From a virus, in the IMG/VR virus record IMGVR_UViG_3300033402_000312: a stretch of DNA of 64,000 bases, one strand, 5' to 3'. Below are positions 8,803 to 32,845 of the stretch, in pieces. The notes under the pieces were generated by a model, which had not been told where the DNA came from, ran no database searches, and saw only the letters and a list, made by a program, of their open reading frames with translations. Both the position numbers and the translations under genes were made by a program. Positions within the stretch are counted from its first letter, which is position 1. Each line of letters opens with the position of its first letter.

Positions 8803-10932
8803 TTACCTTCTCCCTCTCCTATTCCAAGGGCTTACGGGGTTAGTTCCCATGTAAGAAGCTGCATGTTGTTGGGATTTCTTGAGCTTTTCCATGATCTTCA
8901 GGACTTGCATGGGGATGCCGTCCATGCCGAGCAGCGGGGCCGGGGGGCGCATCATCTGCGCCTGCATGAGCAGGCTGAGACCGGAGGGGTCCATCATCTG
9001 CCCCTGCTCCAACAGCCAGCGCTGGGCAAGGAAGGCGCACAGCATGGCAGCGTCCGCCATGTCGTCATGAGCGCCCTTTTCCTGCGGCGCTGCGACGCGA
9101 ATGCGGTACTTCGCCATAACCTCAAGCTCGACGAGCTTCAGTTCCTGGATGAACTTCGGCACGTAAGGGAAGCGGCAGCGCTCGGACTCGATGTAGCCGC
9201 GCAGGGCGTATGCCATCTGCGAGTTGATCGCGGGCGTCAGGTTGACAAGCTCGAAGTTCCTGATCTTCTTCAGTTCAAGTGTCTGTACAAGCTGCTGGCC
9301 TCCATGCTGGTCGGTCGCCCCCTTGAAGCATGGAAGAATCTTGTTCATCTCCTCCATCCAGTCGAGGATGTCTTCCAGCGGAAGAATCTGATAACCCTCG
9401 TATTTGTTTTGCCCGATCCCCACCTTTACGCCCGGCCATTCGCCCTTCTCGCCGACCATCATCCGGTCGATATAGTCGTAGATCAGCTTGATCGTGCCGT
9501 GCGGACCGCCTGGCTCAAGGTGCCCAATGGCGAGCGCGGATGCGTCGTTCGTCATGCCGAGGTCGAAGCCCCAGAAATAGTTCCTGCCGATCTGCATCGG
9601 AGTGAAGCGCTGGATGTTGATGCGTGCGCTTCCCTCGACAGGCAACCCCCTCTCGTCCCACTTGCAGTCCGTGCATTTCTTCACCGATGCCTCAGTCACA
9701 TAGGATTCGGACGACTCTAGGAACTTGCCGCCATATTCGGCCTTGAATGTAAGCGGGTTCTTCTTGTACTCAGATTTGAGGAACTTCGCCAGCAGCTTCG
9801 GGTTCATCTCGGCGCTTGGGCAATTAAGCGTGAAGATGCCGGAAACGATAGGTCCCTCTTCCAACGCCATCTTGTGAAGCTCGTACATCTTGCCGATCTT
9901 CTTGAGCGGGCTGCTGATGCTCAGAATCATGGAGTCCTGAATGCCCTCGTTCTCGTCCTCGAACTCAAGACCCGGCTCGGTTTCCTCGAAACGCACATTG
10001 GAGTCCGTGCCGAAATCCGTGCCCATCGGCTCTTCCGGCAAGGTGCCAGCCGCGACGAGCTTCTCGTGGTGGAAGTCTGCCGTGGACGGCGTAGCCGCCG
10101 CGTACATGTCGTCCGACGTCGATCCTTTCGCGGAGCGGAAGTGTGCAAACTCGTCGAGCGCAAGGAAGATGGATGAAGGCGAACGCACGGCGTTCGTGGT
10201 GCATGGAAGGCAGCTTACTGTGACCGTGGGCGTGGACTCCTGCTTCTCGCGGTCGGCGAGCGTGACGAATGCCAAGTCCTTTGCATTAGTATCCTTCAGG
10301 TACGGGGCAAAAAAGCTTTCAGCCTTGAGCACCTGCTCGCGCAGCTTCTTGAACAGGCGGTGAGCGCCGTTCTCATCCTGCGCAAGAAACGTGAAGTCAA
10401 TGATGGAGCCGGGAAACAAACCGAAGTGCTCCTGCGGAGACCTGATATTTAATAGCAAGTAAAGCTTGTAGCAGGCCACAGCCGCCACTAGCTCCGACTT
10501 GCCTCCTCTCCGCCCGGCGAAAACGCACGCCTCATTGAAGCCCGCCTCGCCGGGGATGCCGCCCATGTTCGGGATGTCGCGCCAGTCGGAAACGTTGCAG
10601 CGCTGCTCGTTAAACGTAATGCGGAGGTACTCCTCCTCGGTCACGTCCGCGTGCAGTTTCTTCTCGCGGAACACGTCGTACATCGGCACCATGCCCCATC
10701 CGGGGATGCGCGACGTCCATTCTGGCTTGTAGTCGAAGGGAACGCCATAGATCGCCTTGACAATAACGCGCTGCACCGGACGCAGCACGATGCCTATGCC
10801 GCCCGGTCCCTCGATAAATTCGATGGCGTTTTGCAGCTTGCTCGGGTCTTCGATGCTCGCGGCAATGGCTGCGCCGAAGACGGAATCCTTGGCGGCCTTG
10901 CCGAAACGCTTGCTTCTGCGGATGTTAGCCAT
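8803..10932 (-). CDS. terL: terminase large subunit (709 aa)
   Basis: Walker A-like FAGRRGGKSELVAAVACYKL, then FLALDEFAHF (Walker B/DE), then a nuclease-like C-terminal half with acidic residues. The size and position are typical for TerL. Confidence 0.85.
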   Translation of the reverse strand: MANIRRSKRFGKAAKDSVFGAAIAASIEDPSKLQNAIEFIEGPGGIGIVLRPVQRVIVKAIYGVPFDYKPEWTSRIPGWGMVPMYDVFREKKLHADVTEEEYLRITFNEQRCNVSDWRDIPNMGGIPGEAGFNEACVFAGRRGGKSELVAAVACYKLYLLLNIRSPQEHFGLFPGSIIDFTFLAQDENGAHRLFKKLREQVLKAESFFAPYLKDTNAKDLAFVTLADREKQESTPTVTVSCLPCTTNAVRSPSSIFLALDEFAHFRSAKGSTSDDMYAAATPSTADFHHEKLVAAGTLPEEPMGTDFGTDSNVRFEETEPGLEFEDENEGIQDSMILSISSPLKKIGKMYELHKMALEEGPIVSGIFTLNCPSAEMNPKLLAKFLKSEYKKNPLTFKAEYGGKFLESSESYVTEASVKKCTDCKWDERGLPVEGSARINIQRFTPMQIGRNYFWGFDLGMTNDASALAIGHLEPGGPHGTIKLIYDYIDRMMVGEKGEWPGVKVGIGQNKYEGYQILPLEDILDWMEEMNKILPCFKGATDQHGGQQLVQTLELKKIRNFELVNLTPAINSQMAYALRGYIESERCRFPYVPKFIQELKLVELEVMAKYRIRVAAPQEKGAHDDMADAAMLCAFLAQRWLLEQGQMMDPSGLSLLMQAQMMRPPAPLLGMDGIPMQVLKIMEKLKKSQQHAASYMGTNPVSPWNRRGRR

Positions 10933-12000: not shown

Positions 12001-12822
12001 TTATGCGACACCTGCGACTGTTGCTTTTGCCCGCACGATTCCGGTGAGGGGCTGTTTCATAATTCGTTCAGCGATTTTGAACTTTCTGGGCAACGCAATG
12101 ACACAGTCTTTGTAAAGTAGTGCAGTAGCATTACGAGCGCGGTCGCCACAAAGTAAAACATCATGTATGGAACCATGCGGTCCCACTTGCCCATAAATGT
12201 TGTTATCAGCGAGAAAATTCACGAATGTTGTGCATGACGCGAGCGATCCGCAAAGTTCCATGACTGCTGTGTTTTTAGATGTGGCTGGATAGCCGTCCCC
12301 GTCAACCATGCCCCGCCAAAAATGCCTACTGTTAACAACCTCGGCGGAGGGGGCGGCTGTAAAAGACTTGCGTTCAGTTATACCTAGTTCCCTGAGGCGG
12401 CGATACAGCTTATCGGAAAGAAGTTGAACTGTATTACATCCAGCCCTTGTTGGAGAAATTGGATACGAAGACTTCAAGAAATCCAAAAATAATCTAAGGT
12501 GCTTTTTATCCTTCTTCGCCAATTTCAGCCTTATTCTGGCCGCTGCGTTATGTTTGCGGTTTCCTTCAACAGTTCCGTCCGCTAGCAAAAATCCGATCCA
12601 ATAAAGCGCCTCTTCGCCTAGAGGCGCATCAAATGCGGTTTCATTGACGGAATACTTCCTGAAAGCTTCTGAGCGACTTCTGACAGCACCATCACCTTCT
12701 ACCCTGACGATCTTCAGAATTGTGGCGCGGCAAAGACGGTAAGCCTTTTGCAAATCAACGGAGCTTTCTCCAGATTTGTACCGTGTTAAAATTTCCTTGC
12801 GAGTTTTATCCATGATCTTCAT
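12001..12822 (-). CDS. LAGLIDADG-family homing endonuclease (double-motif, ~273 aa)
   Basis: Two LAGLIDADG-type motifs, LYWIGFLLADGTVEG and FWRGMVDGDGYPA, preceded by an N-terminal HTH-like segment. The ATG at 12822 lies 17 nt after the stop of the 1591-aa gene. Confidence 0.8.
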   Translation of the reverse strand: MKIMDKTRKEILTRYKSGESSVDLQKAYRLCRATILKIVRVEGDGAVRSRSEAFRKYSVNETAFDAPLGEEALYWIGFLLADGTVEGNRKHNAAARIRLKLAKKDKKHLRLFLDFLKSSYPISPTRAGCNTVQLLSDKLYRRLRELGITERKSFTAAPSAEVVNSRHFWRGMVDGDGYPATSKNTAVMELCGSLASCTTFVNFLADNNIYGQVGPHGSIHDVLLCGDRARNATALLYKDCVIALPRKFKIAERIMKQPLTGIVRAKATVAGVA

Positions 12823-12838
12823 AAATCTCAGATACCAC

Positions 12839-15800
12839 TTACTCACGAGTGCCACAAACAAAACGGTATTTCATGATGAGGCTGTCAGTATCAATAGTCT
12901 CTGGGCGAACAAAAACCTCATAGACGAACCCACCGTTTGGGTCATCGTTCCAAACGGCTGCTTGCGCCCAACTAGAATTCAGAGCGCTCTTAATGTCCCC
13001 GTCGTTGAGTTTTTTCATCAACCACGCAACACGACCGCCTTTGCCGGTGACTCCTAATGGTTGTGTCTGTTGACCCTGCTCAATAATGTCAAGCTGAATT
13101 TCCCCTACGCCTGGAACTTTATCAAGCAATGGACGTTGTGTAATTTTGAAACTTGCTACGAAAGTTGCGGCTATTTCCCCGCATACCTTTTTCAAAAACT
13201 CGGAGAATTGCTTAACTTCGTCTCCCGCAGCGACTTTCTGAGAGGCGATGGCCATCGCGGCTCCCGGTATTCCCTCATACTGACCATAAAATTCATCAGT
13301 AAACATATACCCTCTAATATCGTTCTCCTTGCGGAGAGGCGCTCCTTCGAGAACCTCGGGCTTGCCGTCGCGCCCGATGCCCATTCCGCCCGCTGGCTTA
13401 GTGGACGAGTAGTCCGCCGCAGCCATCGCGAGAGGCTCGACTTCGCCTACGTCGGCAGGCAACTGGATCATCTCGATCACGTTGGTGTCGAGTGCCTCGT
13501 CAAGCATGCCCTCAAGCTCGTGGCTGTCGTCTCCGACGATCTCCGGGTTGCCTGCGCCGCTCATCGGCTGGTTGGTTGCGTTCGGGTAATCCACGATCTC
13601 ATGCTGGATTTCCGGGTAGAATTCCTTCACCACCTGTCCGGGGAAGAAGAAATTGAAGCCCGCTTCCTTTTCGACCTGCTCTTCTGTTTTTGCCATACCG
13701 TCTCCTGCTGTCTTGCCCGCGTCAATTTGCGCCATCGCATCCAAGAACCGTTTCTCTCCGCGACCGCTCTTCAAGGCGGCAATCGCGTCCCGAGCGTTCT
13801 GACCAAACATTTTCAGATTCTCGCGACCTTGGTTTCCGCGCAAAGGATTTTCGCGGGGCAAGTTAACGCCCGCGCCGCCGATAGGCTTGCCCTTATAATA
13901 GAGCATGTAGCCATCGGCATTTGCTTGGTAGGTTAAATCTTCCGCCGCTTTTTTAACGCCCACATTCACGACTTTGGAGAAATCTTTCTTTGTGCCGCGC
14001 CTGTAGCTTTCCCAGCAATCGGATGTGTCTGGGGCGTCGCACTTGATCTTCTTGAAGAGCGTCCAACTGCCTTTTGGCTCCCGGGCCCCCTCGGAGTCTT
14101 GCGTATCCTCGGTCACAAGCTCTATTTTGATTTTCCGATTCGTCGGATGAAAGAAAAACATGTACAATGAACCGTCCACGTTTTCTTGCTTCCAGCCGTT
14201 CGCCCTCAGCAGTTTCTTCATCTGCGTGATGAGCTTGCTATGCCCCCAGCCCTTCTGAGCGGCTTTCTTCACGCCCGTGCCCCCTGCCGTGTAGGCTTTC
14301 TCGTCCCAGCGCAGGCCGTACTGCGCGAGTATCTGCTCGGACTCTTCCCTGTCCGGGCCGCCCATGACGTTGACCATCGGGTCGGGCATCTTCATCGTCT
14401 GGACGGCGATCTGAAGCTGGTGCCATTCCGGCGTGCCCTTCTGCGGCATGCGCTTCACAGAGGTGACATGGATGGCTGCGTTCTTCAGCGAGGAAGAGAT
14501 GCCGACGCTTTTCATGAAGGCGCTGTCTTGGATGTCGGTCTCCCTGCGTTCGTAGTCCATGTTCGCCTTGGCAAGCTCGACCCAGTTCGGCTCTTCCCAC
14601 GGCTCGTTTCCCTCGAACCCGGATTCGCGCTTAAGCTCTTCGTATTGCTTCCTGAAAGTCTTCTTCAGTTGCTCGGCAAGCTGCTCCGGCGTCAAGCCCT
14701 CCTTGATGGCGCGGCGCACCATGTCCTGCTTGAGTTCGAACGTCTCCCTGCTCTCGTTGTCGAGCCACATGTCAAGCTGCCCGGTCTCCCAGTTCGACCA
14801 GTGCTCCTCGCTAATGCCTTGCGGGTCGTCGGCGGTTTTGCCCGAGCTTGCTGATGTTTTCATCGAGATGCATTCGTTGCACAGCCCACGGCCTTCCTCT
14901 AGCTCCGTGCCGGGCAGAAGCTCCTCGCCGCACTTGTAGCAAAACCGCTCAGGATGCTCCGATTCCCCGGATTGCTGCTGCAATTCCTCAAACTTTTTGC
15001 CGCGAGTACCCGCCCCCGCTTGGTCGTAGAATACGTAGGTGTCGCTTTCCGGCGCGTAATCCATCTGCAAGCCCAAGGCTTCCGCAGTGTCCATCATGAA
15101 CGTCGTAAGCTGCTGCTCGAAGGAATCCATGTAGCCTTGCGGGTTCCTCTTCTTCAAGTCCGCGAAGATGCCGTTGAGCCTGTCCGTGACCGCCTTGATC
15201 ACGTCGGTCTTGTTCTTCTCGCTGACGCGGCTCTCGATGGACAGCGCCCTCTTGCCGAAGGAGGCCTTCTTGGAGGCGCTCACGATCCTCTCGGTCTCCC
15301 AGTCGTCGAAACGCATCGCAGGCTTGCCATCCACTTGCCCGCGCACAGCCCAAGTGAAGTCTTGCCCGTTGTGCTCCGGGTCAATCGTCGGGTACTTCTT
15401 TTGAGCCTCGGCGAGGTTCGGGAAGACCTCGCGCCCCTTGCTGCGGGTCACGACCTCGACGGGCGAGTTCACATAGCTCCTCCATTCGACCCACGCTGCT
15501 GTCTTTGTCCTTACGGCAGTTTTGAGGTGCCAGCGCATCTGCTTGTGCTTGAGCAAGCCTTCCCTGAGGAGGTCCTGGAGCACAGGATAAGCCATGTTGG
15601 TGTACTTGCCGCCGCCGAGCGCTTTTTCGATTTCGTCCGTCGTCTTCGGGCCGTGGCCCAGGATTTCCAGCACAAGGTTGCGCTTCGCAGGATCGGCTGC
15701 CGCTGTCTTCTTCACGGGCGGTTTTTCGGGCGGAATCGGCGTTTCGCTCACGGCAGTATGGGAGTTCCACCCGCACGAGCAGGCGTAGGAGTCCTCGGGC

Positions 15801-17614
15801 TTGCCCTTCGATGTCATTTTCCCGCACCACGGGCACCTCATAGTCCAGTTGCTCGCGAACTTGCTGAACTTAGCGGATGCGCTCTTGATGAAGGCATGCG
15901 CTTCCTTGAAGGAGGAGAACGAAGCCTCGCGCCGGGTGCCGCGAAAGACGAACCCAACGTGGAACGATGGGCCCTCTAAGTCCGTGCCGCCGAAAGCCCC
16001 GGTGCCCATGCCCGATGTGACTTTGCCTTGGTTTTCGCCGCCGATTGGCTCAGCGCCCTGCTTGACTTCGGAGGCATCCCCGATCTCGCGCCATATCCCG
16101 CCGCTTTGATCGACCCAAACGTTTTCTGCTTGGTTGTAGTCGAACTCTTCGCTGTTTTCGCTGGCAGCGGCAAGCTCTCCAATGTCGTGGACTTGGACGC
16201 GCTTGCCTTGGCGTTCAAGGACACGGAGGTTGGCGGTCTTTGTTGACTCAGCGCCCTTTTTCTCCTTCGCGATCTCGGCCTCGACGACGGCTTGGGCGTC
16301 GGAAGTGGTGAGACCTTCCTCTTCCAGTTTCCTGACCCTCTCCGCGTAGTCGGGACTCGGGTCGTTCGGGTACTGTTGACCGCCGGTCCCGATGCCCAGC
16401 TTGTCCCGAATATCGACGAATTTCTGCTGGGGATTGATGGGTTTAAGGCTCGTCAGGAGCTTCACCAATTGATGGTAGTTTTCGTTTTCCAATTGGTCGA
16501 TGACGGCTTGGGAGATGCGCTTGAAGCCAGCAGTCTTCATCGCCGCAAGCATCGCCGCCTGGTAGCGTGCCTCCAGTTGCGGGTCCTCCATGATCTGGCC
16601 GCCGCTTTCGATGCCGAGCCTGTCCCAGACATCGTTCTCCAGCAGCATGAGCCTCTCGGCTTGGGAGACCGCCGTCTTGGAGCCGACGTTGATGATGATC
16701 TGGGTGCCTGGCTTCGCGGAGACCTCGGTTGCGCCAGCCGGGGCCTCGCCGTTGAGCTTGGCTTCCGTCTGCTCCACGGCACGCTCGACTTGCTCCTGCT
16801 TGACCTCGATGGGCTTGTGGACTTCCATTTCCGCCTGCGTCTCGATTGCCTCGCGGATCGCGTTCACGTTCTGGCGCTCCGGGGACTTGATTCCGCCGTC
16901 GGCCACAGGGACGCCGTTTTCCTCGTGCGTGTTCGCATGAAGCTCGTCGTTGGAGGCCCCCGCTTCCGGCCCGTCGATGTGGGCTTCGCCGTACGCGTTC
17001 TCTATCGGCTCCATCATCTTCGAAAGCTCTTGGTCGCTGTGGATCAGTTCGGCCGCCAGCTTGTAGGCTTCCGGGCTGTAGCCGTCGTCGGCGAACTTGA
17101 TCGTCACGCCTGTTTTCGTCGAGGCCGCCTTAAGCTTCGCCTCGTATGGCTGCTCTTTCGCGGGCAGCCCCAACGCTTCCAGGTGCTTGCACTTGCGGTG
17201 GCCGATCCAGCCGGGGCAGTTGCAGCCCCAATAGCGCCACTTCTTGTTCTGCGCGATGGTGTAAAGCCTGCCGGAAGACTCGGACTTGATGTAGAAGCGG
17301 TTCGTCCATTGCTTGTTGTCAGGCAGCAGTTGCCCCTCAAATCGTTGTCCGTTGATAACTATGGCTTGCGGGTTGTACTCGGGGTCGTCCGCAGGCTGCG
17401 GGGCTTTGCCCTCGGGTCGCGGCGCTTTCTTCTCGGATTGCTGGGACGGGACGGCGATGTTGAGGGGCTTCATGCCTGCCTCTTCGCGCATCTCGTTGAG
17501 GGCGTCGATCTCTTCCTGCTCGACCGGGTGCCCTTCGGTGAGCTTCCAAAGCAGCGTCTTCGTGAAGACGTTGACTGCGTTGGTTATGTCCGCGATTTTA
17601 TTCTGCTGGTTCAT
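12839..17614 (-). CDS. giant virion-module protein (1591 aa) with N-terminal SWIM-type zinc finger
   Basis: ATG preceded by AAGGGAG. SWIM CxCxnCxH: WGCNCPGWIGHRKCKHLEAL. Additional zinc ribbon CPWCGKMTSKGKPEDSYACSCG and a KYCYKCGEE...CNEC pair. Acidic overall. Confidence 0.7.
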   Translation of the reverse strand: MNQQNKIADITNAVNVFTKTLLWKLTEGHPVEQEEIDALNEMREEAGMKPLNIAVPSQQSEKKAPRPEGKAPQPADDPEYNPQAIVINGQRFEGQLLPDNKQWTNRFYIKSESSGRLYTIAQNKKWRYWGCNCPGWIGHRKCKHLEALGLPAKEQPYEAKLKAASTKTGVTIKFADDGYSPEAYKLAAELIHSDQELSKMMEPIENAYGEAHIDGPEAGASNDELHANTHEENGVPVADGGIKSPERQNVNAIREAIETQAEMEVHKPIEVKQEQVERAVEQTEAKLNGEAPAGATEVSAKPGTQIIINVGSKTAVSQAERLMLLENDVWDRLGIESGGQIMEDPQLEARYQAAMLAAMKTAGFKRISQAVIDQLENENYHQLVKLLTSLKPINPQQKFVDIRDKLGIGTGGQQYPNDPSPDYAERVRKLEEEGLTTSDAQAVVEAEIAKEKKGAESTKTANLRVLERQGKRVQVHDIGELAAASENSEEFDYNQAENVWVDQSGGIWREIGDASEVKQGAEPIGGENQGKVTSGMGTGAFGGTDLEGPSFHVGFVFRGTRREASFSSFKEAHAFIKSASAKFSKFASNWTMRCPWCGKMTSKGKPEDSYACSCGWNSHTAVSETPIPPEKPPVKKTAAADPAKRNLVLEILGHGPKTTDEIEKALGGGKYTNMAYPVLQDLLREGLLKHKQMRWHLKTAVRTKTAAWVEWRSYVNSPVEVVTRSKGREVFPNLAEAQKKYPTIDPEHNGQDFTWAVRGQVDGKPAMRFDDWETERIVSASKKASFGKRALSIESRVSEKNKTDVIKAVTDRLNGIFADLKKRNPQGYMDSFEQQLTTFMMDTAEALGLQMDYAPESDTYVFYDQAGAGTRGKKFEELQQQSGESEHPERFCYKCGEELLPGTELEEGRGLCNECISMKTSASSGKTADDPQGISEEHWSNWETGQLDMWLDNESRETFELKQDMVRRAIKEGLTPEQLAEQLKKTFRKQYEELKRESGFEGNEPWEEPNWVELAKANMDYERRETDIQDSAFMKSVGISSSLKNAAIHVTSVKRMPQKGTPEWHQLQIAVQTMKMPDPMVNVMGGPDREESEQILAQYGLRWDEKAYTAGGTGVKKAAQKGWGHSKLITQMKKLLRANGWKQENVDGSLYMFFFHPTNRKIKIELVTEDTQDSEGAREPKGSWTLFKKIKCDAPDTSDCWESYRRGTKKDFSKVVNVGVKKAAEDLTYQANADGYMLYYKGKPIGGAGVNLPRENPLRGNQGRENLKMFGQNARDAIAALKSGRGEKRFLDAMAQIDAGKTAGDGMAKTEEQVEKEAGFNFFFPGQVVKEFYPEIQHEIVDYPNATNQPMSGAGNPEIVGDDSHELEGMLDEALDTNVIEMIQLPADVGEVEPLAMAAADYSSTKPAGGMGIGRDGKPEVLEGAPLRKENDIRGYMFTDEFYGQYEGIPGAAMAIASQKVAAGDEVKQFSEFLKKVCGEIAATFVASFKITQRPLLDKVPGVGEIQLDIIEQGQQTQPLGVTGKGGRVAWLMKKLNDGDIKSALNSSWAQAAVWNDDPNGGFVYEVFVRPETIDTDSLIMKYRFVCGTRE

Positions 17615-17628
17615 GCCGCCTGGCTCCC

Positions 17629-20600
17629 TTACTTTTCTTCTTCGTCTTCCACGAGGACGATGTCAGCCAAATCTCCGGCCCCAAAATCGAACTCTACCGA
17701 CTCGGACTGATCCTCACCGCACGCCGTCTTGTCTTTGCTGGCAAAATGCTCCGGGTTCACCGTGTCTTCCGCTGCGGGTTCGCCCGCGATTGCCGCCTTG
17801 TCGAAATCGACTCCCGCATCCGCTTCAGCGAGGTCTCCCTCGACGCCGCCGTCATGCTTCGGCCCGACGATCTGCTTGACGGCGGAGTTCTTTCGCCCGG
17901 CCTGCTCCGCTGACTCGGTCTGCGTCGCCATCGGCTCGCCCGCGACCCCGGCCTTGTCGTAGTCAAGCCCGGACTTCGCCTCGCCCATGTCGCCGCTGAT
18001 GTCATCCGCAACTTTTTCGACATCATTTGGCTGACTGTCCTGGACGCGAACAGATAAATGGGGCAAATCCCCCATCATTGCGCGAGCCAGATGGTCTGCT
18101 TCTTCATTGGTATCAAAAGAGTCAAAAACAAATTCTTTGCCACTGTTGTGGACTGGGTTCCTTACTATGACTTGGAATCTTTTTCCATGAACATCATGAG
18201 AAGCTTTGCGCCTGCCCGCGTCGAGGACGGAGACTGTCGGCTGCGGGATGTCCTTGTCCACGGCGTTCGGGCTGGTGCTCTCGGACTTCGCCTGCGCTAT
18301 GTCGCCCTCGATCCCGTGGTCGTGCTTTTCGCCGACCATCTGCTTGACGCCCGTGTTCTGGTTCGCGCTCTTGGTGTTGCTCGGCGTCGGCCCTGAGGTG
18401 TCCCTCTTCTCGACGACCTTCTTGTTCTCCGGCGCTCCCTTGCCGTCGTTCTCCATGTTGTACGGGTTGTCGGCGGTGTCGGCTTTCTTCGCGTTCGCGG
18501 GCTGCGCTTTTCCGTCGTTCGGCGGCGCATCCGCACGACGCTCATTTCTGATCGCCTCCTCCATATCCTCTACAGAGGGGATCGCTTCTATCGCGCTCGT
18601 CTTGTCCTTCCCCTGGGCATGCTCGGGCTTGCTTTCCATCCGGTCGTCAAGCCCCGCCGTCCCGTATTCGCGGACGGAACGCAGCGCCTTTCCCGCCTCC
18701 TCGGTAGTCATGGGCCTGAGCACGCTGCCAGCCGCATCGGCTTTCTTCTGCCCCTGCGGGGGAGCATCCGGGCCGCTGGTGTCCTCAACGTCCGCGTCGG
18801 TCTTGGGCTGGATCACGCCCTCGCCGCCCCTCCAGTTGGCGGGGTTGTCGGCAGTGTCGCTTCTCTTTCTCCTCAGCGGCTTCTTCGGTGCCTTCTTTGC
18901 CTGCTGGGCGATCATTTTCTCGATCATCGCCATCAGCGGCTTGTAAGTCATGAACGTTTTTCCGCCGAGACTGATGAGATAGCCGTTGGAACTGCTTTGA
19001 TCCTCAAAGAGACCGTAGACCGGGTGAACCAGGTCGCCGCTCTCGTCCTCTCTGAATCCTGCACGCTCAAGGGCGTTGTGGATTCTCGCCATCGAGAACT
19101 GCGTTGGAAGAGAGTTGTCATCTCCCTCTTCTTCGTCGTCTTCTTCGTCAACCAGGAATCCCTCGCTGTTCGTCCGTGGCGACCATCCCTTTCCCTTCGG
19201 CGCTGCTTGTTTGATGTCCGCGCCAGCCTCGGGCCTCGGTCGGTCTGTGCCCTTGGAGCGCTCGGCGTCGGTGTCCTTGTGGCACTCGACGGTGCCGCTC
19301 GGCCCGGTCTCCTCGGAGGTCGGGTCCGAAGCAGCGTCGATGTCGTGCTCGTTGTCCGCCGTGTCGGCGACTTTGGCAGAGGCTTCTTTCTCCTGCGACT
19401 CGCCGGTCTCACCGCTAACGCGGGGGAAACTGCGCCGCAGATTCTTATCTCTAGCAAGCGCAAATGGATGAAATTCTCCATCCGCGTCAATGATGCCATC
19501 CTTGTTTTTGGATATGATGCGACCGCAGCCCACGCAATCTATCGGAGCATTTACCGCCTGGCAAGACGGGTTGGTGCAATGAGACGCCGTGCCGTGCGGG
19601 TACCTCCTGTTGCATTCTGGGCAACGACCACTGGCAGCACCACAATGCGGGCACTTAAGCCGAGGCTCCGCTGTCTTGGCGCTCGCCTCATGCTGATAGC
19701 TGCGGATGCGCTTGAAAAGCGCCGCCGCTTCCTGCTTTTCCTGAGGCTCAAGACCGGCCGCGCTGAGCAGATTATCCCAGTTGCGCCTCAGGTCGGACAC
19801 GTCGCCGATCATGTCGTTCATGCCGATGTCGCCCGACTGCTGCGCCATGACGAAGCCGTCGCTGGTGATCGCCATGTCGGTGATTGACGGGTTGGTGTAG
19901 GTCTCGCCGAGGATGTACCCCACGATTGCCGCCATCTTGCCGGACATGTCGGAGAAGCGGCCGGGGAACAGCTTCTTCTTCAGGCCCTCGGACGCCGCTG
20001 CCGTCTTGGACGCCATGCACTCATGCTGGATTTCATCGCTTTCGGCTGAGCAGCAAGGGTCGTCCTCGTCAACGTCGAAGCCGCACTCGCGGCACTTGCG
20101 CTGCCTGACCCACCTGCCGCTCTCCTCGTCCCAGCGTGCGTTCGCGTTCGGGCAGCCGTGCTCGTGGCAGGGCACGCCGTTGATCGCCGCCATCTCGCAC
20201 TGGTCGCAGCTTACGCGGCGGCCGGAGTCCTCGATCTCGCCGGAGACTTCGTCCACGAAGTCGGCGAACTTGCTGTCGATGCGCCAGGCGGACTGCTTGG
20301 TGGCCTCGTTTTCGAGACCGGACTCTTCCCTTTCCGCATCGCCTTCGGAGACCTCCTTTTTGTCCTCCGGCTCGGGGCTGCGGAACGCCTCCGGCAGGTC
20401 TCCCACGTCGCGCTTGTTTGGGCGTGCGCTGCTGCGCGGCTCCGTGCTCTGGCTCTCGCCTTCCGTGTTGGACGGGGCGGAGTTGCTCGGGTCGGTGTCA
20501 ACGTCCACCAGCGGAGCCGGACCCATGTCCTCGGTGATCGCGTCCCAGATGGAGTCGATGTCAAGCTCGACCGCCGTCTTCGGGCGGAACCTGTCGAGCA

Positions 20601-23600
20601 GGGACTCCTTCTCGGCGCGTGCCTGCTTGCCCCTTGTCGAAATGGCTTCGTAGCCGCCATCGCTGTCCACGATCTTAGCCAGCTTGTTAGCAACGTATGC
20701 TGGCGAGAAAGACTTGGACTTCGCGGAGGCGACGTGAACCATGTGGTCGTCGCCGATGTACAGGTCGGACTCGCCGAAGCTTCTCGCGACTTCGCTCAGC
20801 CTGTCCCCCAGACCGCCTTCTTTGAGGGCCTCACGATCCCAGAACCCCACGCCGTGGCCGCAGCGGGTCAGCCAGAAGTCGTGCCCTGCCATGGCCTGAC
20901 CTGACCATTCGCCGGGGCGATCATAGCCTGGGCGCTGGTAGGCTTCCTGAAGCAGAGGCGCGGCTTTCTTCTGGAAATCCGCGCAATCCTTGCGAATCTG
21001 CTGCATGCCCTCGTCGGAGATGTCCTCGATGTCGTAGTTCCTGTCCAGCGGCTCGCCGCCGCTCGGATCGGAACCGTCGTTGGTTGACCAGAGAGCGGCT
21101 TCGATGTAGCCGCGCTCAAAATCGTTCAGGATGTCGCGGTTCACTGCACCGCGCTTGAACTTCAGCGGAATCTCGACGCTGCCCCACTTCTCCTCCGCCT
21201 TCTTGGAGAACGAGTTGTCGCCAGCCGCAGACTTGTCGAGCGGGTACTTGCCGTATCCGCCAGCCTTGATCTCCTTGGCATGGTCGGCAACGGCGCTTGG
21301 ACTCTGGGAATCCGGCTGTGTGGTGGCGGTGATGTACGCCGCAACCTCCTTCGGAGGCGCGTTGCGCTTGTCTACAAAGCCGCCGCTGTACATCTTGGCG
21401 TAGTGGTCGGTGAGATTCGCGTTGATCGGGGGTTCTATCTGCTTGCCACGATTGTCGAAGCCCTCCTTTTCGGGGTGTGGCGTCTTCACGATCTTCGCAG
21501 TCTTGCCCTCTTCTTCCTTGCGGCGGGGATCGCTGCTTGCGGCATTCTTATCCGAAGCCAAAAATCCCCCTTGGTCGGCATATCCCTTAATCCTGTCGAT
21601 GAGACCGTCGGTCCGGTGGGCGGGCATATTCGGATCGTAGCCGGGATTCTCCTCGTTGTACTTGTCGCGGCACTCGTTGGAGCAGAAGTTCGCTCCCGGC
21701 TCTACAGTCGCCTCGCACTGCTTGCAGTGCCCCCAGTGGTCGGCTTTCTTACCTTTGCTGCCGACCTTGGCTTCCTCCTCCTTGCGGCGAGGCACTCCGG
21801 TCTCGTCGATGGCGATGCCGATTGGGCCGCCGGTCGATTCGTCTTCCCTGCCCTCGTCGCCTTGGACGCTCTCCTTCATCGCCGGGGCGGAGGCTTCCTG
21901 CTCGGCGTGGGCTTCGGTCCCCGGGCCGACGTTCGTGAACGGGGTCTCGTGCGGGGCGCAGGCTTCCTTCGCGCTGCCCGTCATCTGCCGCTCGTCAAAG
22001 GCCGCAGCCTCGAAATCGCGTGCCGCCTGTTTCCCGCAGTCCTCGCCGTCGCAGTAAACCGTCTTGGTCTTCGGGTAGTAGTAAACCCGTTCCCCGGCAT
22101 TGATGTCCCGCCCGCACTTCTTGCAGCGGGAAGGCTGCTTGGCTTCCAGCCAGCGGGGGTCGCCGCTGTAGGCTTTCTTCTCGGCGGAGCCTTTGTGCGA
22201 CTCCATGTTCCTCAAGCCTTCTTTTGCCGCATCTTCGGACTTGAAGCTTTCCAGAATCTTGCCCGTCTCGTGCTGCTTGATGCACCATTCGGCCTTCTCG
22301 CCCTTCGAGTTGCGGTGACCGGGGCAATGCGACACGTAGGCGACCTTCTTGAGCGACGCCGCCTTGCAGGTGCAGTTCTCGCAGGAGCACTCGCCGCCAG
22401 CCTTCTTGCAGCCGGGGCACACGCCGTCCGCGCCGATGTGGGCGACCTTCTCGGAGTCAGCCTTGCTCTTGCTGTAGCCGCACTTCTTGTTCGTGCAGGC
22501 TTCCCTCTTGATGGGCTGCCCGGCGACAAACACCTTCTCGACCTCCGTGTCGCTCCCGCACTCGGGGCACTTCTGTCCCTTTTCCTTCTTAGCCTTTTTG
22601 GCGGAGGACTCTTTCTTGTCCTTCTCCTTGGAGCCGAACGGCGGGGCCTGCTTGCCGCCGAAAGCCTCGGAGGCTTCGTGCGCCACGGTAGGCTCGTCGC
22701 CTTCGATGGCGCGGAGCCACTCAGCGGGGACTTGGTCTCGCGGGACTTCTTGGCAGCCCTTCAGGAACTCTTCGCTGATGGCTGTGGTTTGGACAGAGCT
22801 AACACTCCCGGCGATAGCTGTCCCGCGCCCTTCGTACTGGTCTTCGCCGAAGTTCTTTTGGTAATAAGACAACGAATCCGGGTCGATAGCCAAATAGTCG
22901 CCGTTGGACTCTTGGAAAAACCTTAACGGCTCGCCGTTTGCTTCCTTCGACGAAGCCTCGCGGGGCACGCCCGGCTTCGCTTCGGGGGCCTTGAACCCGC
23001 CCTCGCCCTGTGCGCCATCGGCGCTGGGGAGCAGGGACTGCTCAAGCGCCTGGTTCAGGGAGTCGAACACGTCGAGTTCCTGGGGGTCGAGCGTCTGCTT
23101 GGCGATCTCGTCGGCGGTCTTCCTGTTCAGTAGCACCGTCGCCCTCTTCCAGCCAGCCGACTTCTCAAGCTGCGGGAACTGCTTCAGCGGGTTCTCGGAC
23201 AGGAACGGGTAAGACAGCTTCGGCGTGATGTCGGTGACGTCCACCTTGGTCGTGTCCACGTTGGTCATCAGCGCGTTGAAGGCGCTGGACACTGCGGGGT
23301 TGTAGTACGCCGAGAAGACCAGGTGGCGCAGGTCGTTCTTAAGCTGCTCGGCGTTGTCGCTGAAGTGGAAGCAGACGTACTCGCGGGAGTTCATCCAGTT
23401 CGGGGCGAACACCACTAGGGAGGCTTCCTCGCCCGTCTTCGCATCGGTGAAAAGCTCCTTCTTGATCGTGTCGAAATCCGCTTGGCTGTACTCGTCGAAT
23501 TCGCCAGCCCCGATTTTCTTCTCGATGAGGTCGGCGACCTCCTCGCCTCCGGTGCCGAACACGCGGACGAGAGCGCCGTGGAGCAGCGCCGTGGGGAAGT

Positions 23601-23847
23601 TCTGCCTGTCGTTGCACACCTTGGCGGGGACGACCATGATGCGCCCGAGGGAGATGTTCTGGCGAAAGCCGTGGCAGAAGACCTCGAACGACTGCACGTT
23701 GCCGGACGAGCGGGCCTCCTTCTCGCCAGCCTGGACGGCTTCGACGACTTTTTGCAGCAGTTCCTCGCTTACCGTGAATATCTGGAAGCTCTTGCCTGCG
23801 ACGCTGTTGCCGCCGACGCCAGCCTTCTTGGTGATTTCCTTTGCCAT
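17629..23847 (-). CDS. giant acidic zinc-ribbon-rich protein (2072 aa)
   Basis: ATG preceded by AAAGGGGAA. At least 8 CxxC...CxxC ribbons (e.g. CPECGSDTEV...CTNKKCGY, CKKCGRDINAGERVYYYPKTKTVYCDGEDCG, KCPHCGAASGRCPECNRRYPHGTASHCTNPSCQ). N-terminal GNSVAGKS fits [AG]x4GK[ST]. Conserved-looking GHDFWLTRCGHGVGFWD. Confidence 0.7.
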   Translation of the reverse strand: MAKEITKKAGVGGNSVAGKSFQIFTVSEELLQKVVEAVQAGEKEARSSGNVQSFEVFCHGFRQNISLGRIMVVPAKVCNDRQNFPTALLHGALVRVFGTGGEEVADLIEKKIGAGEFDEYSQADFDTIKKELFTDAKTGEEASLVVFAPNWMNSREYVCFHFSDNAEQLKNDLRHLVFSAYYNPAVSSAFNALMTNVDTTKVDVTDITPKLSYPFLSENPLKQFPQLEKSAGWKRATVLLNRKTADEIAKQTLDPQELDVFDSLNQALEQSLLPSADGAQGEGGFKAPEAKPGVPREASSKEANGEPLRFFQESNGDYLAIDPDSLSYYQKNFGEDQYEGRGTAIAGSVSSVQTTAISEEFLKGCQEVPRDQVPAEWLRAIEGDEPTVAHEASEAFGGKQAPPFGSKEKDKKESSAKKAKKEKGQKCPECGSDTEVEKVFVAGQPIKREACTNKKCGYSKSKADSEKVAHIGADGVCPGCKKAGGECSCENCTCKAASLKKVAYVSHCPGHRNSKGEKAEWCIKQHETGKILESFKSEDAAKEGLRNMESHKGSAEKKAYSGDPRWLEAKQPSRCKKCGRDINAGERVYYYPKTKTVYCDGEDCGKQAARDFEAAAFDERQMTGSAKEACAPHETPFTNVGPGTEAHAEQEASAPAMKESVQGDEGREDESTGGPIGIAIDETGVPRRKEEEAKVGSKGKKADHWGHCKQCEATVEPGANFCSNECRDKYNEENPGYDPNMPAHRTDGLIDRIKGYADQGGFLASDKNAASSDPRRKEEEGKTAKIVKTPHPEKEGFDNRGKQIEPPINANLTDHYAKMYSGGFVDKRNAPPKEVAAYITATTQPDSQSPSAVADHAKEIKAGGYGKYPLDKSAAGDNSFSKKAEEKWGSVEIPLKFKRGAVNRDILNDFERGYIEAALWSTNDGSDPSGGEPLDRNYDIEDISDEGMQQIRKDCADFQKKAAPLLQEAYQRPGYDRPGEWSGQAMAGHDFWLTRCGHGVGFWDREALKEGGLGDRLSEVARSFGESDLYIGDDHMVHVASAKSKSFSPAYVANKLAKIVDSDGGYEAISTRGKQARAEKESLLDRFRPKTAVELDIDSIWDAITEDMGPAPLVDVDTDPSNSAPSNTEGESQSTEPRSSARPNKRDVGDLPEAFRSPEPEDKKEVSEGDAEREESGLENEATKQSAWRIDSKFADFVDEVSGEIEDSGRRVSCDQCEMAAINGVPCHEHGCPNANARWDEESGRWVRQRKCRECGFDVDEDDPCCSAESDEIQHECMASKTAAASEGLKKKLFPGRFSDMSGKMAAIVGYILGETYTNPSITDMAITSDGFVMAQQSGDIGMNDMIGDVSDLRRNWDNLLSAAGLEPQEKQEAAALFKRIRSYQHEASAKTAEPRLKCPHCGAASGRCPECNRRYPHGTASHCTNPSCQAVNAPIDCVGCGRIISKNKDGIIDADGEFHPFALARDKNLRRSFPRVSGETGESQEKEASAKVADTADNEHDIDAASDPTSEETGPSGTVECHKDTDAERSKGTDRPRPEAGADIKQAAPKGKGWSPRTNSEGFLVDEEDDEEEGDDNSLPTQFSMARIHNALERAGFREDESGDLVHPVYGLFEDQSSSNGYLISLGGKTFMTYKPLMAMIEKMIAQQAKKAPKKPLRRKRSDTADNPANWRGGEGVIQPKTDADVEDTSGPDAPPQGQKKADAAGSVLRPMTTEEAGKALRSVREYGTAGLDDRMESKPEHAQGKDKTSAIEAIPSVEDMEEAIRNERRADAPPNDGKAQPANAKKADTADNPYNMENDGKGAPENKKVVEKRDTSGPTPSNTKSANQNTGVKQMVGEKHDHGIEGDIAQAKSESTSPNAVDKDIPQPTVSVLDAGRRKASHDVHGKRFQVIVRNPVHNSGKEFVFDSFDTNEEADHLARAMMGDLPHLSVRVQDSQPNDVEKVADDISGDMGEAKSGLDYDKAGVAGEPMATQTESAEQAGRKNSAVKQIVGPKHDGGVEGDLAEADAGVDFDKAAIAGEPAAEDTVNPEHFASKDKTACGEDQSESVEFDFGAGDLADIVLVEDEEEK

Positions 23848-23857
23848 ACGTTCCCCT

Positions 23858-24358
23858 TTACTTCTTGGAGTCGAGCTTGTCGATCTCGCGGCGAATCTCT
23901 TCTTCCTTTTCCGCCATTATGTCCCGCCAGTGGTTGAGAATGCTGTTGATGGTCGTGTCGTCGAGCTTCACCATCCGCATCGCTTCCTTCAGGCCCTCGG
24001 AATACTGGATGAGGGCGTACTTGAACTTCTTGCCGTCCATGTTGAGGAAATCCTTGTGGCTGAGCGTGTCGGCTTCCATGATTTCCTTGCCAAGCTCGCG
24101 GAGCGACTTGACCTGCGTCTCGAAGACCTTGACTTTCATGCCCTCGATGATGTTGACGTCGTTCCCGTACTTGATCATCAGCATGTTGATCGACGCGATC
24201 TCTTCCGCGATGAGCCTCTTGATCTTCGCCGGGGGCGTGGTTTCGTCGGCGATCAGCCTGCGGATTTCGCCGAGCTTGGAGTCGCGCTCCTGCTCGGACT
24301 GTTCCTTTTCGCCGCTGACGTTGCCGTTCTCGTCGATGTTGAGCGTCCACTCTTCCAT
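23858..24358 (-). CDS. hypothetical helical/charged protein (166 aa)
   Basis: ATG 4 nt after the upstream stop, preceded by TAAGG. Lys/Glu-rich. Confidence 0.5.
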   Translation of the reverse strand: MEEWTLNIDENGNVSGEKEQSEQERDSKLGEIRRLIADETTPPAKIKRLIAEEIASINMLMIKYGNDVNIIEGMKVKVFETQVKSLRELGKEIMEADTLSHKDFLNMDGKKFKYALIQYSEGLKEAMRMVKLDDTTINSILNHWRDIMAEKEEEIRREIDKLDSKK

Positions 24359-24362
24359 TGCC

Positions 24363-26498
24363 TTAGTCCAAGTCCACCTTGTAGTGCTCTCCGATTTCCA
24401 CGTCGTCCCTCTTCGGCCCGCTGACGTCTATGTCCGGCATGTCGTGGCTCCCGGTCAGGTCGAACTCGTTCAGGATCGCATGGCCGTCCGTCGCCTTCTT
24501 TTCCCCCGCGTGCTTGCCCATGCCGGGGTAGGACAGGAAGTTTGCATCTTCCGGCACGCTCGCCACGACCTGCGTCACTGGGCGGCGCTGCGGGTCGAGC
24601 ATCCTGACCTGCTCCGGGCGGAACCCCAGCTTGCCGATGAGGAATGCACGGTCGTTCTCGGACACGGCGACCTTGCCGGGGCGCTTCCTCATGTCCTCGA
24701 CGAACCCCGCGACCGCCCTGTGTGCCTCGACCGACCCCACCTTGCCCGCCGCGCTCTTGTAAATCCTCTCGACGCTGTGCCCGGCTTGGTGCAGCATGCG
24801 CACCTTCGCGGCGGTGACGACGATCTCGGCTTCGCGGTCGGGCTGCTTGCTCGCCGCGACATGGGAGGACGACTCCGCGAACTTTGCCGCGACGCGCCCG
24901 GCCTTGGAGCTTGTCTTGCCGCTCTGCTGATACGCCATCAAGTCCTGCTGGCTGATGGGCTGAACTTCGCCGCAAGAGGTGCAGAACACCTCGCTGTGCT
25001 CGTCGTAGGTGAAGTAGTGCTGGTCTGCGCCGCAGTTCGCGCACGGCCGGATGTCCACCGCGCTTTCCTCGTAGTCGAGGATCGGGGACAGCGCCTTCTT
25101 GTGGTACTCGCAGCTTGCGCACCTCTCCTTGCCCTCGAAGGCGGCGTTGCGGATTCCGATGCTGTTCAGGAACGACAAGTCCTTGCTCGCGACCTCGATC
25201 CTGCCGCTCGCGTTCTTCCTCAGGCCCTGGACGAAGCCACGGAACGCAAGGCTCACGTCCACGCTGCCGAACTTCTCCTCAGCCCATTTGTAAATCTGCT
25301 CAAGGGACGCGCCCTTGCCGTGCATCTTTGCCACGTGCTCGGAGGAGAAGCGCCTGCTCGTCTCCCGGCTGTCCGAGAACTGGTAGCTGGCACGCTTCTC
25401 CTGGTTGCGGACCTTGGCGTCCGCCGTCTTGACCACGCCGGTCTGCTCGGCGACCTTCGGGTTCTGCACCCGCTTTCCGTCGCCGTTCGCGAGGACTACC
25501 AGAGCCGCGTGCTTGCGCTTCTCCGGCACGCCCGGCGTCAGGTGGTTCACGATCTGCGAAAGCTCCTGTGCGTTGGCGACTACCGGGAGGTGGTACAGGT
25601 TGCAGGTCTTGCTGCGTGCGCCCTTGCCGAAGTACTGGCAGCCTTGGCACGCTGCGATCTGCTTCACGCTGTGCGCCTGCGGCTTGATGCCCGCCTGATC
25701 CCACGCCTTCTTCTGCGCGACGCAAACATTGCTGCTACTTTTTGGCAAAGCCCGAAAACCTAGCTCTCGCACATGACCACATTTCGGGCATTCATACTGA
25801 CCGCCTGAGTGCTTCATTTTAGTGCCGCATTTTGAGCACTTCGGGTTATCTTCAATGTTTTTGTCAACAGCCGTGTGCTCGTAGGTCGGGCTGTTCTTGT
25901 CCATGTAGGTGTTCGGCTCAAGGTAGGCAATGCCCAGCAGGCCCGCATTGCGCTGTAGGTAGTCCGTCGCGCTCTGGTGGTTGAAAAGCTCGATCTCGGC
26001 GAGCTTCTGAAGCTGCTGGGCGACCTTCGCCGGGGAGGTGCCTTGGTTGAGCAGGTCGCGGACGTACTTGAGCACCTGCGCGTCCGACACCTCTTTCTTC
26101 GCCGCGCTGTTCTCCGCGAGGTTGCTGCTGGAGTACGCCTTCTCGATGCTCTCGGTCACCTCGTTCATCAGGGAATCATTGTCGCCGTCCTCGGACTTGT
26201 ACTCGTCCATGCGGCGGTACGCCGTCACGGAATTGATGCGCGGTGCCGCCGCCTCCTTCTCGGCGATGCGCTCCTCGTAGATGCGAGCGCCGGACTTCGG
26301 TCCCCAAATCGGGGTGTGGCGGCTTGCCGACTCGGCGATGTCGTCCTCGAAATCCGTGTCCGCGTACTGGTGCGACCAGTCCGCGACCTCCTCGCCGGAC
26401 TTCCGGGCGTCTTCCATGCCGATGTCTTTCCAATTGGGTTCTCGGCGATCCAGTAGAGCATCAATTATATTGGAATATGGCTGTTTTTCTGTTGCCAT
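24363..26498 (-). CDS. zinc-ribbon protein with three internal ~45-aa repeats (712 aa; 730 aa if the GTG at 26555 is used)
   Basis: Repeats LEQIYKWAEEKFGSVDVSLAFRGFVQGLRK, VERIYKSAAGKVGSVEAHRAVAGFVEDMRK, and QVLKYVRDLLNQGTSPAKVAQQLQKL. Ribbons CSKCGTKMKHSGGQYECPKCGH and CANCGADQHYFTYDEHSEVFCTSCGE. The ATG at 26498 is 4 nt after the GIY-YIG stop. Confidence 0.5.
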   Translation of the reverse strand: MATEKQPYSNIIDALLDRREPNWKDIGMEDARKSGEEVADWSHQYADTDFEDDIAESASRHTPIWGPKSGARIYEERIAEKEAAAPRINSVTAYRRMDEYKSEDGDNDSLMNEVTESIEKAYSSSNLAENSAAKKEVSDAQVLKYVRDLLNQGTSPAKVAQQLQKLAEIELFNHQSATDYLQRNAGLLGIAYLEPNTYMDKNSPTYEHTAVDKNIEDNPKCSKCGTKMKHSGGQYECPKCGHVRELGFRALPKSSSNVCVAQKKAWDQAGIKPQAHSVKQIAACQGCQYFGKGARSKTCNLYHLPVVANAQELSQIVNHLTPGVPEKRKHAALVVLANGDGKRVQNPKVAEQTGVVKTADAKVRNQEKRASYQFSDSRETSRRFSSEHVAKMHGKGASLEQIYKWAEEKFGSVDVSLAFRGFVQGLRKNASGRIEVASKDLSFLNSIGIRNAAFEGKERCASCEYHKKALSPILDYEESAVDIRPCANCGADQHYFTYDEHSEVFCTSCGEVQPISQQDLMAYQQSGKTSSKAGRVAAKFAESSSHVAASKQPDREAEIVVTAAKVRMLHQAGHSVERIYKSAAGKVGSVEAHRAVAGFVEDMRKRPGKVAVSENDRAFLIGKLGFRPEQVRMLDPQRRPVTQVVASVPEDANFLSYPGMGKHAGEKKATDGHAILNEFDLTGSHDMPDIDVSGPKRDDVEIGEHYKVDLD

Positions 26499-26502
26499 GG
26501 CA

Positions 26503-27306
26503 TTAAGCGGCTGCTGCCGCACTCCTTTTGTTATTGACCGCGTTGGCACAAGCACGCTTGCAATACTTTCTCGTCTTCACAGAACTAAAATCCTTCCTAC
26601 GCGGGATGATAAAGGAGCCACACGCAGCACAGAAGTTCGGATGAGCTAGATACTCATTCCATTCACGATTTTGCCGCTCTTTTGTAGACTCCTTACGCAA
26701 AGAATTCACAAAACTACGTACACTTTGGATGCCTTTGGAGTACCCGTTTGCCCGCAAACGTTTACAAATCGTAACTGCATCCATCTGTGGCGTCCGTCGA
26801 AGCCACAAGATAATCATTTCCCGAAAAGCATCGCACGCTTTGGCAGGAGGATGCTCTTTACGATACTGACTTAGCTTTTTCCGTCCCTCGGCATTTTCAG
26901 CCCATTTCTGTCCCAAATGCATTTTTCCACCAACCGCGCCCCCTTTTCGACAACCTTCTAACAGTCGCCCAGTCTTAGGACGTCCATACATCCAATTCAA
27001 CTTGCCCGGTGCTGCCCCGTCGCCCCCCAGCGTCATGTTGTAGCCGTTCGCCGGAACGTGGCTTTGGTGCAGGACGATGAAGAAGGTCTCCATTGCCGAA
27101 AGCTCTTCCGGGGTCTTGGCTCGGCGGATTACCTCGACGGTGAAGGCGTCGGCTCCGTACTTGCGGATAGCATTTGACAAATACAACGTGCTTCCGTTTT
27201 TTGCAGCGCGAATATGCTGTTTCCATCGGTCTCGGGCAGACCGTCCCTGCCATTTCCCAATGTAAATTTTGCCGTTCTTCCGGTTTGTAATTTTGTATAT
27301 CAGCAT
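26503..27306 (-). CDS. GIY-YIG homing endonuclease (I-TevI-like, 267 aa)
   Basis: MLIYKITNRKNGKIYIGKWQ (GIY...YIG), R...H, FIVLHQ, and NGYNMTLGGDG (the I-TevI NGYN motif). Basic C-terminal DNA-binding tail with a CxxC. Confidence 0.8.
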   Translation of the reverse strand: MLIYKITNRKNGKIYIGKWQGRSARDRWKQHIRAAKNGSTLYLSNAIRKYGADAFTVEVIRRAKTPEELSAMETFFIVLHQSHVPANGYNMTLGGDGAAPGKLNWMYGRPKTGRLLEGCRKGGAVGGKMHLGQKWAENAEGRKKLSQYRKEHPPAKACDAFREMIILWLRRTPQMDAVTICKRLRANGYSKGIQSVRSFVNSLRKESTKERQNREWNEYLAHPNFCAACGSFIIPRRKDFSSVKTRKYCKRACANAVNNKRSAAAAA

Positions 27307-31802: not shown

Positions 31803-32007
31803 TGCTAGTTTTTCTCTTGAGATGCCCTGTGTGGTAAAACCCGCAAAACGTGCATGGGTAAACGACCCGACTGCCGGGGCAGTTTCGCTTGGCAGCCGCC
31901 TCGTTCAGGTAGCGCGTCTTTCGACCGCACTCCTTGAGCTTCCGCAGCAGCCAATATGTCCGTTCATCCATATATGAAATCTTATTTTGTCGGGAAGAGC
32001 CAGTCAA
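31783..32007 (-). CDS. small Cys/His-containing protein (74 aa)
   Basis: CPGSRVVYPCTFCGFYHTGH, a possible zinc-binding regulator. Overlaps the 3' end of the plus-strand gene by 20 nt. Confidence 0.3.
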   Translation of the reverse strand: MTGSSRQNKISYMDERTYWLLRKLKECGRKTRYLNEAAAKRNCPGSRVVYPCTFCGFYHTGHLKRKTSISGSPG

Positions 32008-32740: not shown

Positions 32741-32845
32741 TGTCCCTCCAGAAGCTCCTTGCACACCCCCAGTATACAGGCAACAATGCGGAATCGTCTA
32801 GTTTTAAGTGTTTTGTTTTCCTTTACTTATAGGAATGCGGCAGCC

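Follow-up and report, generated by a model that had tools for sequence, protein, structure and literature searches.

Introduction

Phages are already known to package large multi-domain proteins, and head cargo that is processed by a protease is known as well. Packaging and injection have been predicted or shown for the polyvalent proteins of phages and conjugative elements, among them P1 DarB and DdrB and the N4 virion RNA polymerase, and some of these undergo proteolytic processing (Iyer, Burroughs, Anand, de Souza & Aravind 2017; PMC5512222). In giant phages, many packaged proteins are cut by the prohead protease at a short motif (PMC10052503). Here we describe p2072, a protein of 2072 amino acids (aa) encoded in a 64,000-nucleotide (nt) stretch of viral DNA (IMG/VR record IMGVR_UViG_3300033402_000312, hereafter the window), together with its downstream neighbor p1591. 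The gene is split in two, mosaic in its module content, marked by a recurrent K-[T/K]-A junction motif (K[KT]A below) and located in the head/packaging block of a tailed phage. What is new is the combination of two clade-specific anchors, a variable chain of tiny modules (several of them free-standing genes elsewhere), K-[T/K]-A junctions and frequent gene splitting.

The locus resembles polyvalent proteins in its very large size, the many unrelated domains per chain and its position beside virion and packaging genes, here directly upstream of the gene for the large terminase (TerL). In contrast to them, the MPTase, ART, methyltransferase, SNF2/DExH helicase, ParB, ArdC-N, MuF and LPD families were not detected here, the modules are tiny (50-140 aa), the N- and C-terminal anchors are conserved, K-[T/K]-A junctions are present and the gene is often divided into 2-4 open reading frames (ORFs). 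In lying in a head gene block with a prohead protease gene nearby, it is also like the T4 internal proteins and Alt and the phiKZ gp175 and SPN3US gp245 substrates (PMC10052503). Shared with such substrates is a short recurring tripeptide, here a candidate signal, with several sites per protein. Known prohead-protease motifs end in Glu, namely (L/I)xE in T4 and (S/A/G)xE in phiKZ and SPN3US, whereas the putative cleavage motif here is K-[T/K]-A and the candidate sites are far more numerous (16-39 per protein).

A cultured relative, Tunturi_5 (PP885688.1), is a 309-kb jumbo myovirus of Acidobacteriota (PMC11924767). Its gp350 (XOB77793.1, labeled a 'DarB-like antirestriction protein') is the ortholog of the gene studied here, with the same N-domain, C-domain, KTA-peptide and position upstream of TerL. 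It differs in being a single 1080-aa ORF that lacks the PHROG 1915 module described below; the version in the window is 3.4 times longer.

A Split Gene Between Two Anchor Domains

The ORF of p2072 is real, running from an ATG to a stop codon, and is the longest in the window (Table 1). The original prediction, which was made from the sequence alone, had drawn attention to two strings in it, GNSVAGKS near the N-terminus and GHDFWLTRCGHGVGFWD near the middle, and both are present. The linkers are acidic, as claimed there, and are also rich in Lys, Ser and Ala. Zinc ribbons are likewise found, but the proposed number of more than eight was too high: 15 CxnC motifs pair into approximately eight Cys4 units (at aa 427/451, 477/487, 575/599, 708/722, 1214/1227, from 1252, 1399/1409 and 1424/1438). 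Searches of Pfam, NCBIfam and PDB sequences with the whole of p2072 gave nothing usable beyond a weak treble-clef match to DUF2116.

The start of Tunturi_5 gp350 aligns with p2072 aa 11-269 at 42% identity, and its end aligns with p1591 aa 1307-1590 at 44% identity; the peptide that follows KTA at p2072 aa 1090-1139 is also common to p2072 and gp350. Judged by these alignments, p2072 and p1591 (3,663 aa together) are descendants of a single gene of a jumbo myophage clade. The two genes are predicted to be translationally coupled. The reading frame of p1591 differs from that of p2072. Both end domains are found in one ORF (1080-2253 aa) in Tunturi_5 and in the loci L022/23, L030/31, L033 and L036, in two abutting or overlapping ORFs in most other loci, and in four ORFs in L029. 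From N- to C-domain the span ranges from approximately 1,080 to 3,030 aa in the related loci, and the 3,663 aa of the window is the largest.

Within p1591, we noticed a SWIM-like zinc-finger segment at aa ~95-162 (containing WGCNCPGWIGHRKCKHLEALG). It shares 57% identity with part of a 595-kb uncultured phage that lacks annotation (LR756511.1), the only match to p1591 outside the clade.

A Mosaic of Small Modules

The end domains are constant: each of the 35 related loci has the N-domain, and 28 of 31 have the C-domain. Single modules occur in 0-20 loci, the PHROG 1915 module being found in 9-11 and the stretch of aa 1276-1475 in 0-1. When p2072 aa 1041-2072 was used as the query of an exhaustive HMMER search, 930 homologs were returned; the best 150 include 82 small proteins that align with aa 1281-1392 and 38 that align with aa 1195-1280. 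Large orthologs match this region collinearly but in patches, and other homologs are small free-standing proteins (Table 1); the protein is therefore a string of modules. We counted at least 12 separable modules in p2072. The chain between the anchors is variable and comprises approximately 20 or more small modules; several of these are also found in other places as small phage genes of their own.

A family census of 38 orthologous ORFs yielded almost only small PHROGs without assigned function, the exceptions being a toxin-binding Xre/MbcA/ParS_C antitoxin-type domain (E = 6e-7) in one ortholog, an in-frame HNH endonuclease in another and DUF7249 in three; it contained no nucleoside triphosphatase (NTPase), helicase or methyltransferase. 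A comparison of the giant ORFs of the window with one another revealed no internal paralogy.

The string GHDFWLTRCGHGVGFWD contains an HGxGFWD block that had been noted as a conserved but unplaceable enzymatic core. The conservation stands, and the block can now be placed: it lies in a domain of ~135 aa, PHROG 1915, and is near-invariant among the homologs. The profile match is full-length (E = 9.1e-33, profile positions 5-140 of 141), and p2072 has every one of the 34 positions at which 130 PHROG 1915 sequences show 90% identity or more. It carries both the core xGHDFWLTRxGHGxGFWD and the N-terminal AALWS..D..GG.P.D motif. Homologs number more than 1,100 and are mostly 125-160 aa. The PHROG 1915/20867 family usually consists of free-standing phage proteins of this length in small accessory gene arrays, whereas in p2072 it forms part of a giant chain.

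If the packaging and processing proposed below take place, the PHROG 1915 module, whose core is invariant and rich in His, Asp and Arg, would be one of the effectors delivered and would probably bind a metal or ligand. No PDB fold match was found for the domain, and profiles of it and of the aa 1281-1392 module had no significant match among PDB sequences. A reading of the 'HD...H...D' pattern as HD-phosphohydrolase-like found no structural or profile support and was dropped. The domain is rare on plasmids (9 of 72,556 records, mostly non-mobilizable) and is therefore not a conjugative leading-region gene. Literature searches on the K[KT]A motif or PHROG 1915 gave no match, and the phage G paper contains no cleavage-motif data.

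A Recurrent Tripeptide at Module Junctions

The tripeptide K[KT]A occurs 16 times in p2072 against 2.3 expected (z = 9.3), 12 times in p1591 against 1.7, and seven times in another giant ORF, p1660, against 0.9. It is absent from TerL and the tail sheath protein, and within the window its enrichment is confined to five giant ORFs. The order of the residues matters: in 24 orthologs, KTA was found 139 times compared to 12-33 for each permutation, and KKA 115 times compared to 42 and 22. The extended consensus, carried by the exposed linkers that separate the modules, is [A/S]-S-S-K-[T/K]-A-[D/A/G]. The codons of the motif vary synonymously, roughly in genome proportions, so selection on K[KT]A acts at the level of the peptide. 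Two other readings, a recombination joint at the DNA level and the relic of a Shine-Dalgarno sequence, were rejected because of the same variation.

The motif also coincides with the borders of homology. Among high-scoring segment pairs between relatives, 62% of the starts lie no more than 8 aa from a K-x-[A/S], compared to 28 ± 6% for random positions. The C-domain begins right after K-x-A in 19 of the 21 orthologs listed (EKEA/GFNFFFPGQ and variants), with the other two reading ITA/GFSFFYPGQ, and in seven of nine embedded copies of the PHROG 1915 domain, a K-x-A is found no more than a few residues upstream. The K[KT]A sites lie in a low-hydrophobicity context, and cuts there would give pieces of 30-260 aa.

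Three other giant ORFs on the minus strand, p1660 (33862-38844), p1883 (49609-55260) and p730 (24363-26555), are enriched in K[KT]A and contain zinc ribbons, and modules of p1660 match phrog_9437 (E = 3e-28) and phrog_6504. These ORFs may be built on the same plan as p2072.

Packaging and Processing as a Possible Role

The window comes from a tailed phage, as TerL, the tail sheath, the major head protein and a head maturation protease are all encoded there, and nearly all of its genes lie on the minus strand. Along the direction of transcription come the sheath, p1883, the protease, p741, the major head protein, p1660, p730, p166, p2072, p1591, a LAGLIDADG endonuclease and TerL, an order that places p2072 within the head/packaging block.

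We hypothesize, at about even chances, that the protein is a virion-associated polyprotein that is cut at K-x-A by the head maturation protease, so that small accessory proteins are delivered with the virion. Under this hypothesis, synthesis would be late, and one anchor domain or both would bring the protein into the prohead. The protease, encoded ~25 kb upstream in the direction of transcription, would then cut the K-x-A sites to leave domain-sized pieces of 30-260 aa, and these would accompany the DNA into the cell, where they would serve as ready-made accessory or counter-defense factors. We infer packaging and processing because there are precedents for both, in the prohead-protease substrates of giant phages (PMC10052503) and in polyvalent proteins, which are packaged and sometimes processed (PMC5512222).

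A more far-reaching version, which we put forward only tentatively, is a capsid 'effector train': a polyprotein reaching 3,663 aa, held between two anchors, would be cut by the protease at K-[T/K]-A into 20 or more injected small proteins. In smaller phages, on this interpretation, these small proteins are encoded by ordinary early or accessory genes. If it is true, a jumbo phage delivers many small proteins ready-made rather than expressing them after entry, and the junction motif would give a sequence-only readout of the catalog of injected factors. Widespread ORFan families such as PHROG 1915 would gain a role in the 'first minutes of infection', and hundreds of small phage families (PHROG 1915, the aa 1281-1392 module, zinc-ribbon proteins) would be tied to one testable role. 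It would further imply a new cleavage specificity for the prohead protease family and make head cargo predictable across the soil-phage clade. As a cultured relative exists (Tunturi_5 on Tunturiibacter), the prediction is directly testable.

Several observations weigh against packaging and processing. Some K[KT]A sites are located inside folded domains (for example aa 960 in PHROG 1915, and aa 243), so not every site is a junction. When the 280 ORFs of the complete Tunturi_5 genome are ranked for K[KT]A, the orthologs gp348 and gp350 take the first two places, in this order, but with a P of only ~2e-3, which is not significant after multiple testing. The single KTA near the N-terminus of the capsid protein was considered as a propeptide site and dropped, being invariant in the clade, different in phage G and maybe part of the fold. 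The protease family has no relative of solved structure that is detectable by sequence, the effector domains typical of described polyvalent proteins are absent from the Pfam matches of p2072 and the 38 orthologous ORFs, and the names and neighborhoods of the modules' free-standing homologs were uninformative and gave no function.

In the same Tunturi_5 ranking, the protease is third and the ejection protein sixth. We note that the top six include gp205, an 853-aa 'ADP-ribosyltransferase exoenzyme toxin', and gp328, a 'DNA ejection protein' (ORFs at 144708-147269 and 273832-276330, respectively). Their K[KT]A enrichment would fit packaged, processed proteins, with weak statistics.

Alternative Explanations

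A processed polyprotein has two main rivals: a structural or internal head protein that stays uncleaved, and a protein that is not part of the virion. In the former, which we consider unlikely but the most serious of the rivals, the protein would be inner-body, scaffold-like or DNA-organizing; the zinc ribbons and acidic linkers would be its functional parts, K-x-A would be a linker or assembly-recognition feature, and the small modules would be passengers. The head gene block, the many zinc ribbons, the acidic, disordered linkers, the KKA[DE] motifs also found in the scaffold-like p741, and the combination of conserved ends with a middle that is free to vary all fit such a protein. However, the embedded PHROG 1915 copies keep all of the near-invariant polar residues of the free-standing family (only in L016 is His989 replaced by Asn), so the module is under functional constraint of its own, and a more than threefold range in length (1,080 to 3,663 aa) is hard to fit to a fixed structural role.

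Somewhat less probable again, in our view, is a cytoplasmic multi-domain protein, late or early, or a self-processing polyprotein, that never enters the virion and lies next to the terminase gene by accident. Against such an accident, the synteny is conserved within a co-directional head/packaging block, and K[KT]A is common to other giant ORFs of the same block; the N-domain is without a conserved cysteine, and its structural model is of low confidence.

The GenBank label of gp350 points to a DarB-like antirestriction enzyme, a head-packaged methyltransferase/helicase that shields incoming DNA. In P1 DarB, an N6-adenine methyltransferase domain is combined with a DExH helicase domain. The label of gp350 comes from automatic assignment by Phold, and p2072, like P1 DarB, is a very large phage-encoded protein, here beside head and packaging genes, but neither a methyltransferase nor a helicase domain was found by Pfam, NCBIfam or PHROG in p2072, p1591, gp350 or the 38 orthologous ORFs, which makes this explanation very improbable.

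The faintest prospect of all is a view built on the original prediction, which had itself allowed for a chance match, namely that an N-terminal P-loop NTPase head drives an enzyme with an HGxGFWD catalytic core. GNSVAGKS does fit [AG]x4GK[ST], and K19 is nearly invariant in the N-domain family, but the HGxGFWD block is separated from it by ~970 residues and belongs to a module that is normally a protein by itself and that only about one in four orthologs has, and the string is not a nucleotide-binding loop. The match is one of chance, with [AG]x4GK[ST] present in 27% of composition-preserving shuffles of p2072. The glycine of the GK pair is L, I or V in distant N-domain homologs and in Tunturi_5 gp350, most N-domain homologs begin 4-5 residues ahead of the string, and a check for a Walker B motif found no hhhh[DE] in aa 1-250. 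In a low-confidence AlphaFold2 (AF2) model of the N-domain, aa 1-25 are disordered, the first helix begins at aa 28 and no P-loop fold was found. Profiles of the N-domain and the C-domain gave no significant match to PDB sequences. The labels 'P-loop NTPase' and 'DarB-like antirestriction protein' are thus misleading, and this correction holds even if the processing idea is wrong.

Gene Neighborhood

Coordinates of the gene, its modules and neighboring genes are collected in Table 1.

Table 1. Positions of p2072, p1591, their modules and selected neighboring genes in the window (residue numbers refer to p2072 unless stated)
Feature	Position (nt)	Strand	Remarks
p2072, 2072 aa	17629..23847	minus	Upstream half of split modular gene; ATG at 23847, stop 17629-17631
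N-terminal anchor domain, aa 1-270	23038..23847	minus	Clade-specific
GNSVAGKS, aa 13-20	23788..23811	minus	Chance Walker-A look-alike; GK glycine not conserved
Optional module, aa 304-398	22654..22938	minus	Missing in close homolog P0121; ..EAS junctions on both sides
Two Cys4 zinc-ribbon units, aa 425-495	22363..22575	minus	
Zinc-ribbon module, aa 560-607	22027..22170	minus	phrog_5664 match; KKA before it
Segment, aa 626-700	21748..21972	minus	Common to 20/35 related loci
Treble-clef zinc finger, aa 707-733	21649..21729	minus	Weak DUF2116 match; KKA before it
PHROG 1915 domain, aa 903-1039	20731..21141	minus	Helical with C-terminal beta-hairpin; KKA before it
GHDFWLTRCGHGVGFWD, aa 988-1004	20836..20886	minus	Near-invariant core of PHROG 1915 domain
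Conserved peptide KTA-VELDIDSIWDAITEDMGPAPLVDV, aa 1090-1139	20431..20580	minus	Common to Tunturi_5 gp350 and ~20 loci
Zinc-ribbon module, aa 1195-1280	20008..20265	minus	Free-standing proteins are 38 of top 150 matches, median 98 aa
Module, aa 1281-1392	19672..20007	minus	Free-standing proteins are 82 of top 150 matches, median 121 aa; not in 35 related loci
Double zinc-ribbon module, aa 1393-1462	19462..19671	minus	Few free-standing homologs
C-terminal region, aa 1826-2072	17632..18372	minus	Common to 9-17 orthologs; acidic tail at end
14-nt spacer GGGAGCCAGGCGGC between p2072 stop and p1591 ATG	17615..17628	minus	GGGAG, likely ribosome-binding site
p1591, 1591 aa	12839..17614	minus	Downstream half of same ancestral gene; modular, K[KT]A-rich
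C-terminal anchor domain, p1591 aa 1307-1591	12842..13696	minus	In 28/31 related loci
Large terminase (TerL)	8803-10932	minus	
LAGLIDADG endonuclease	12001-12861	minus	Pfam and phrog_4645; directly between p1591 and TerL
GIY-YIG endonuclease	26503-27306	minus	phrog_314/7168
HNH endonuclease	42891-43874	minus	phrog_655; directly downstream of major head protein gene
Major head protein	43968-44996	minus	
Head maturation protease	48673-49596	minus	phrog_18299; 55% identity to Tunturi_5 gp331; candidate processing enzyme
Tail sheath	61225-63999	minus	

The phage of the window is an Acidobacteria-type jumbo myophage and kin of Tunturi_5. Its capsid protein is 71% identical to that of Tunturi_5 and 35% identical to phage G gp27, the Tunturi_5 order gp347-348-349-350-TerL is kept in the window, and related IMG/VR contigs reach 463 kb.

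The annotated GTG start of the major head protein is probably wrong, as all relatives begin at a Met 23 codons downstream (MANLSRTQQQ..). Over ~80 metagenomic loci, this protein is 86-100% identical, whereas the N-domain of the modular gene is far less conserved (43-85%). The ORF p741 (46368-48593, minus strand), between the protease and capsid genes, is Ala/Pro/Glu-rich with coiled-coil-like ends, and it contains KKA[DE] motifs in several places along with a small cluster of Cys residues (AECKCEGPCKCG). Its match in Tunturi_5 is gp332, and it probably serves as the scaffolding protein.

Three homing-endonuclease-type genes from three families are interspersed among the head and packaging genes (Table 1). 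The AT skew of the plus strand is strongly negative (to -0.36) over the giant ORFs, at 14000-27000 and 32000-38000, because purine-rich (GAx/AAx) codons make up their acidic, Lys-rich linkers. The long plus-strand ORFs that overlap the giant ORFs are most likely artifacts of high G+C content.

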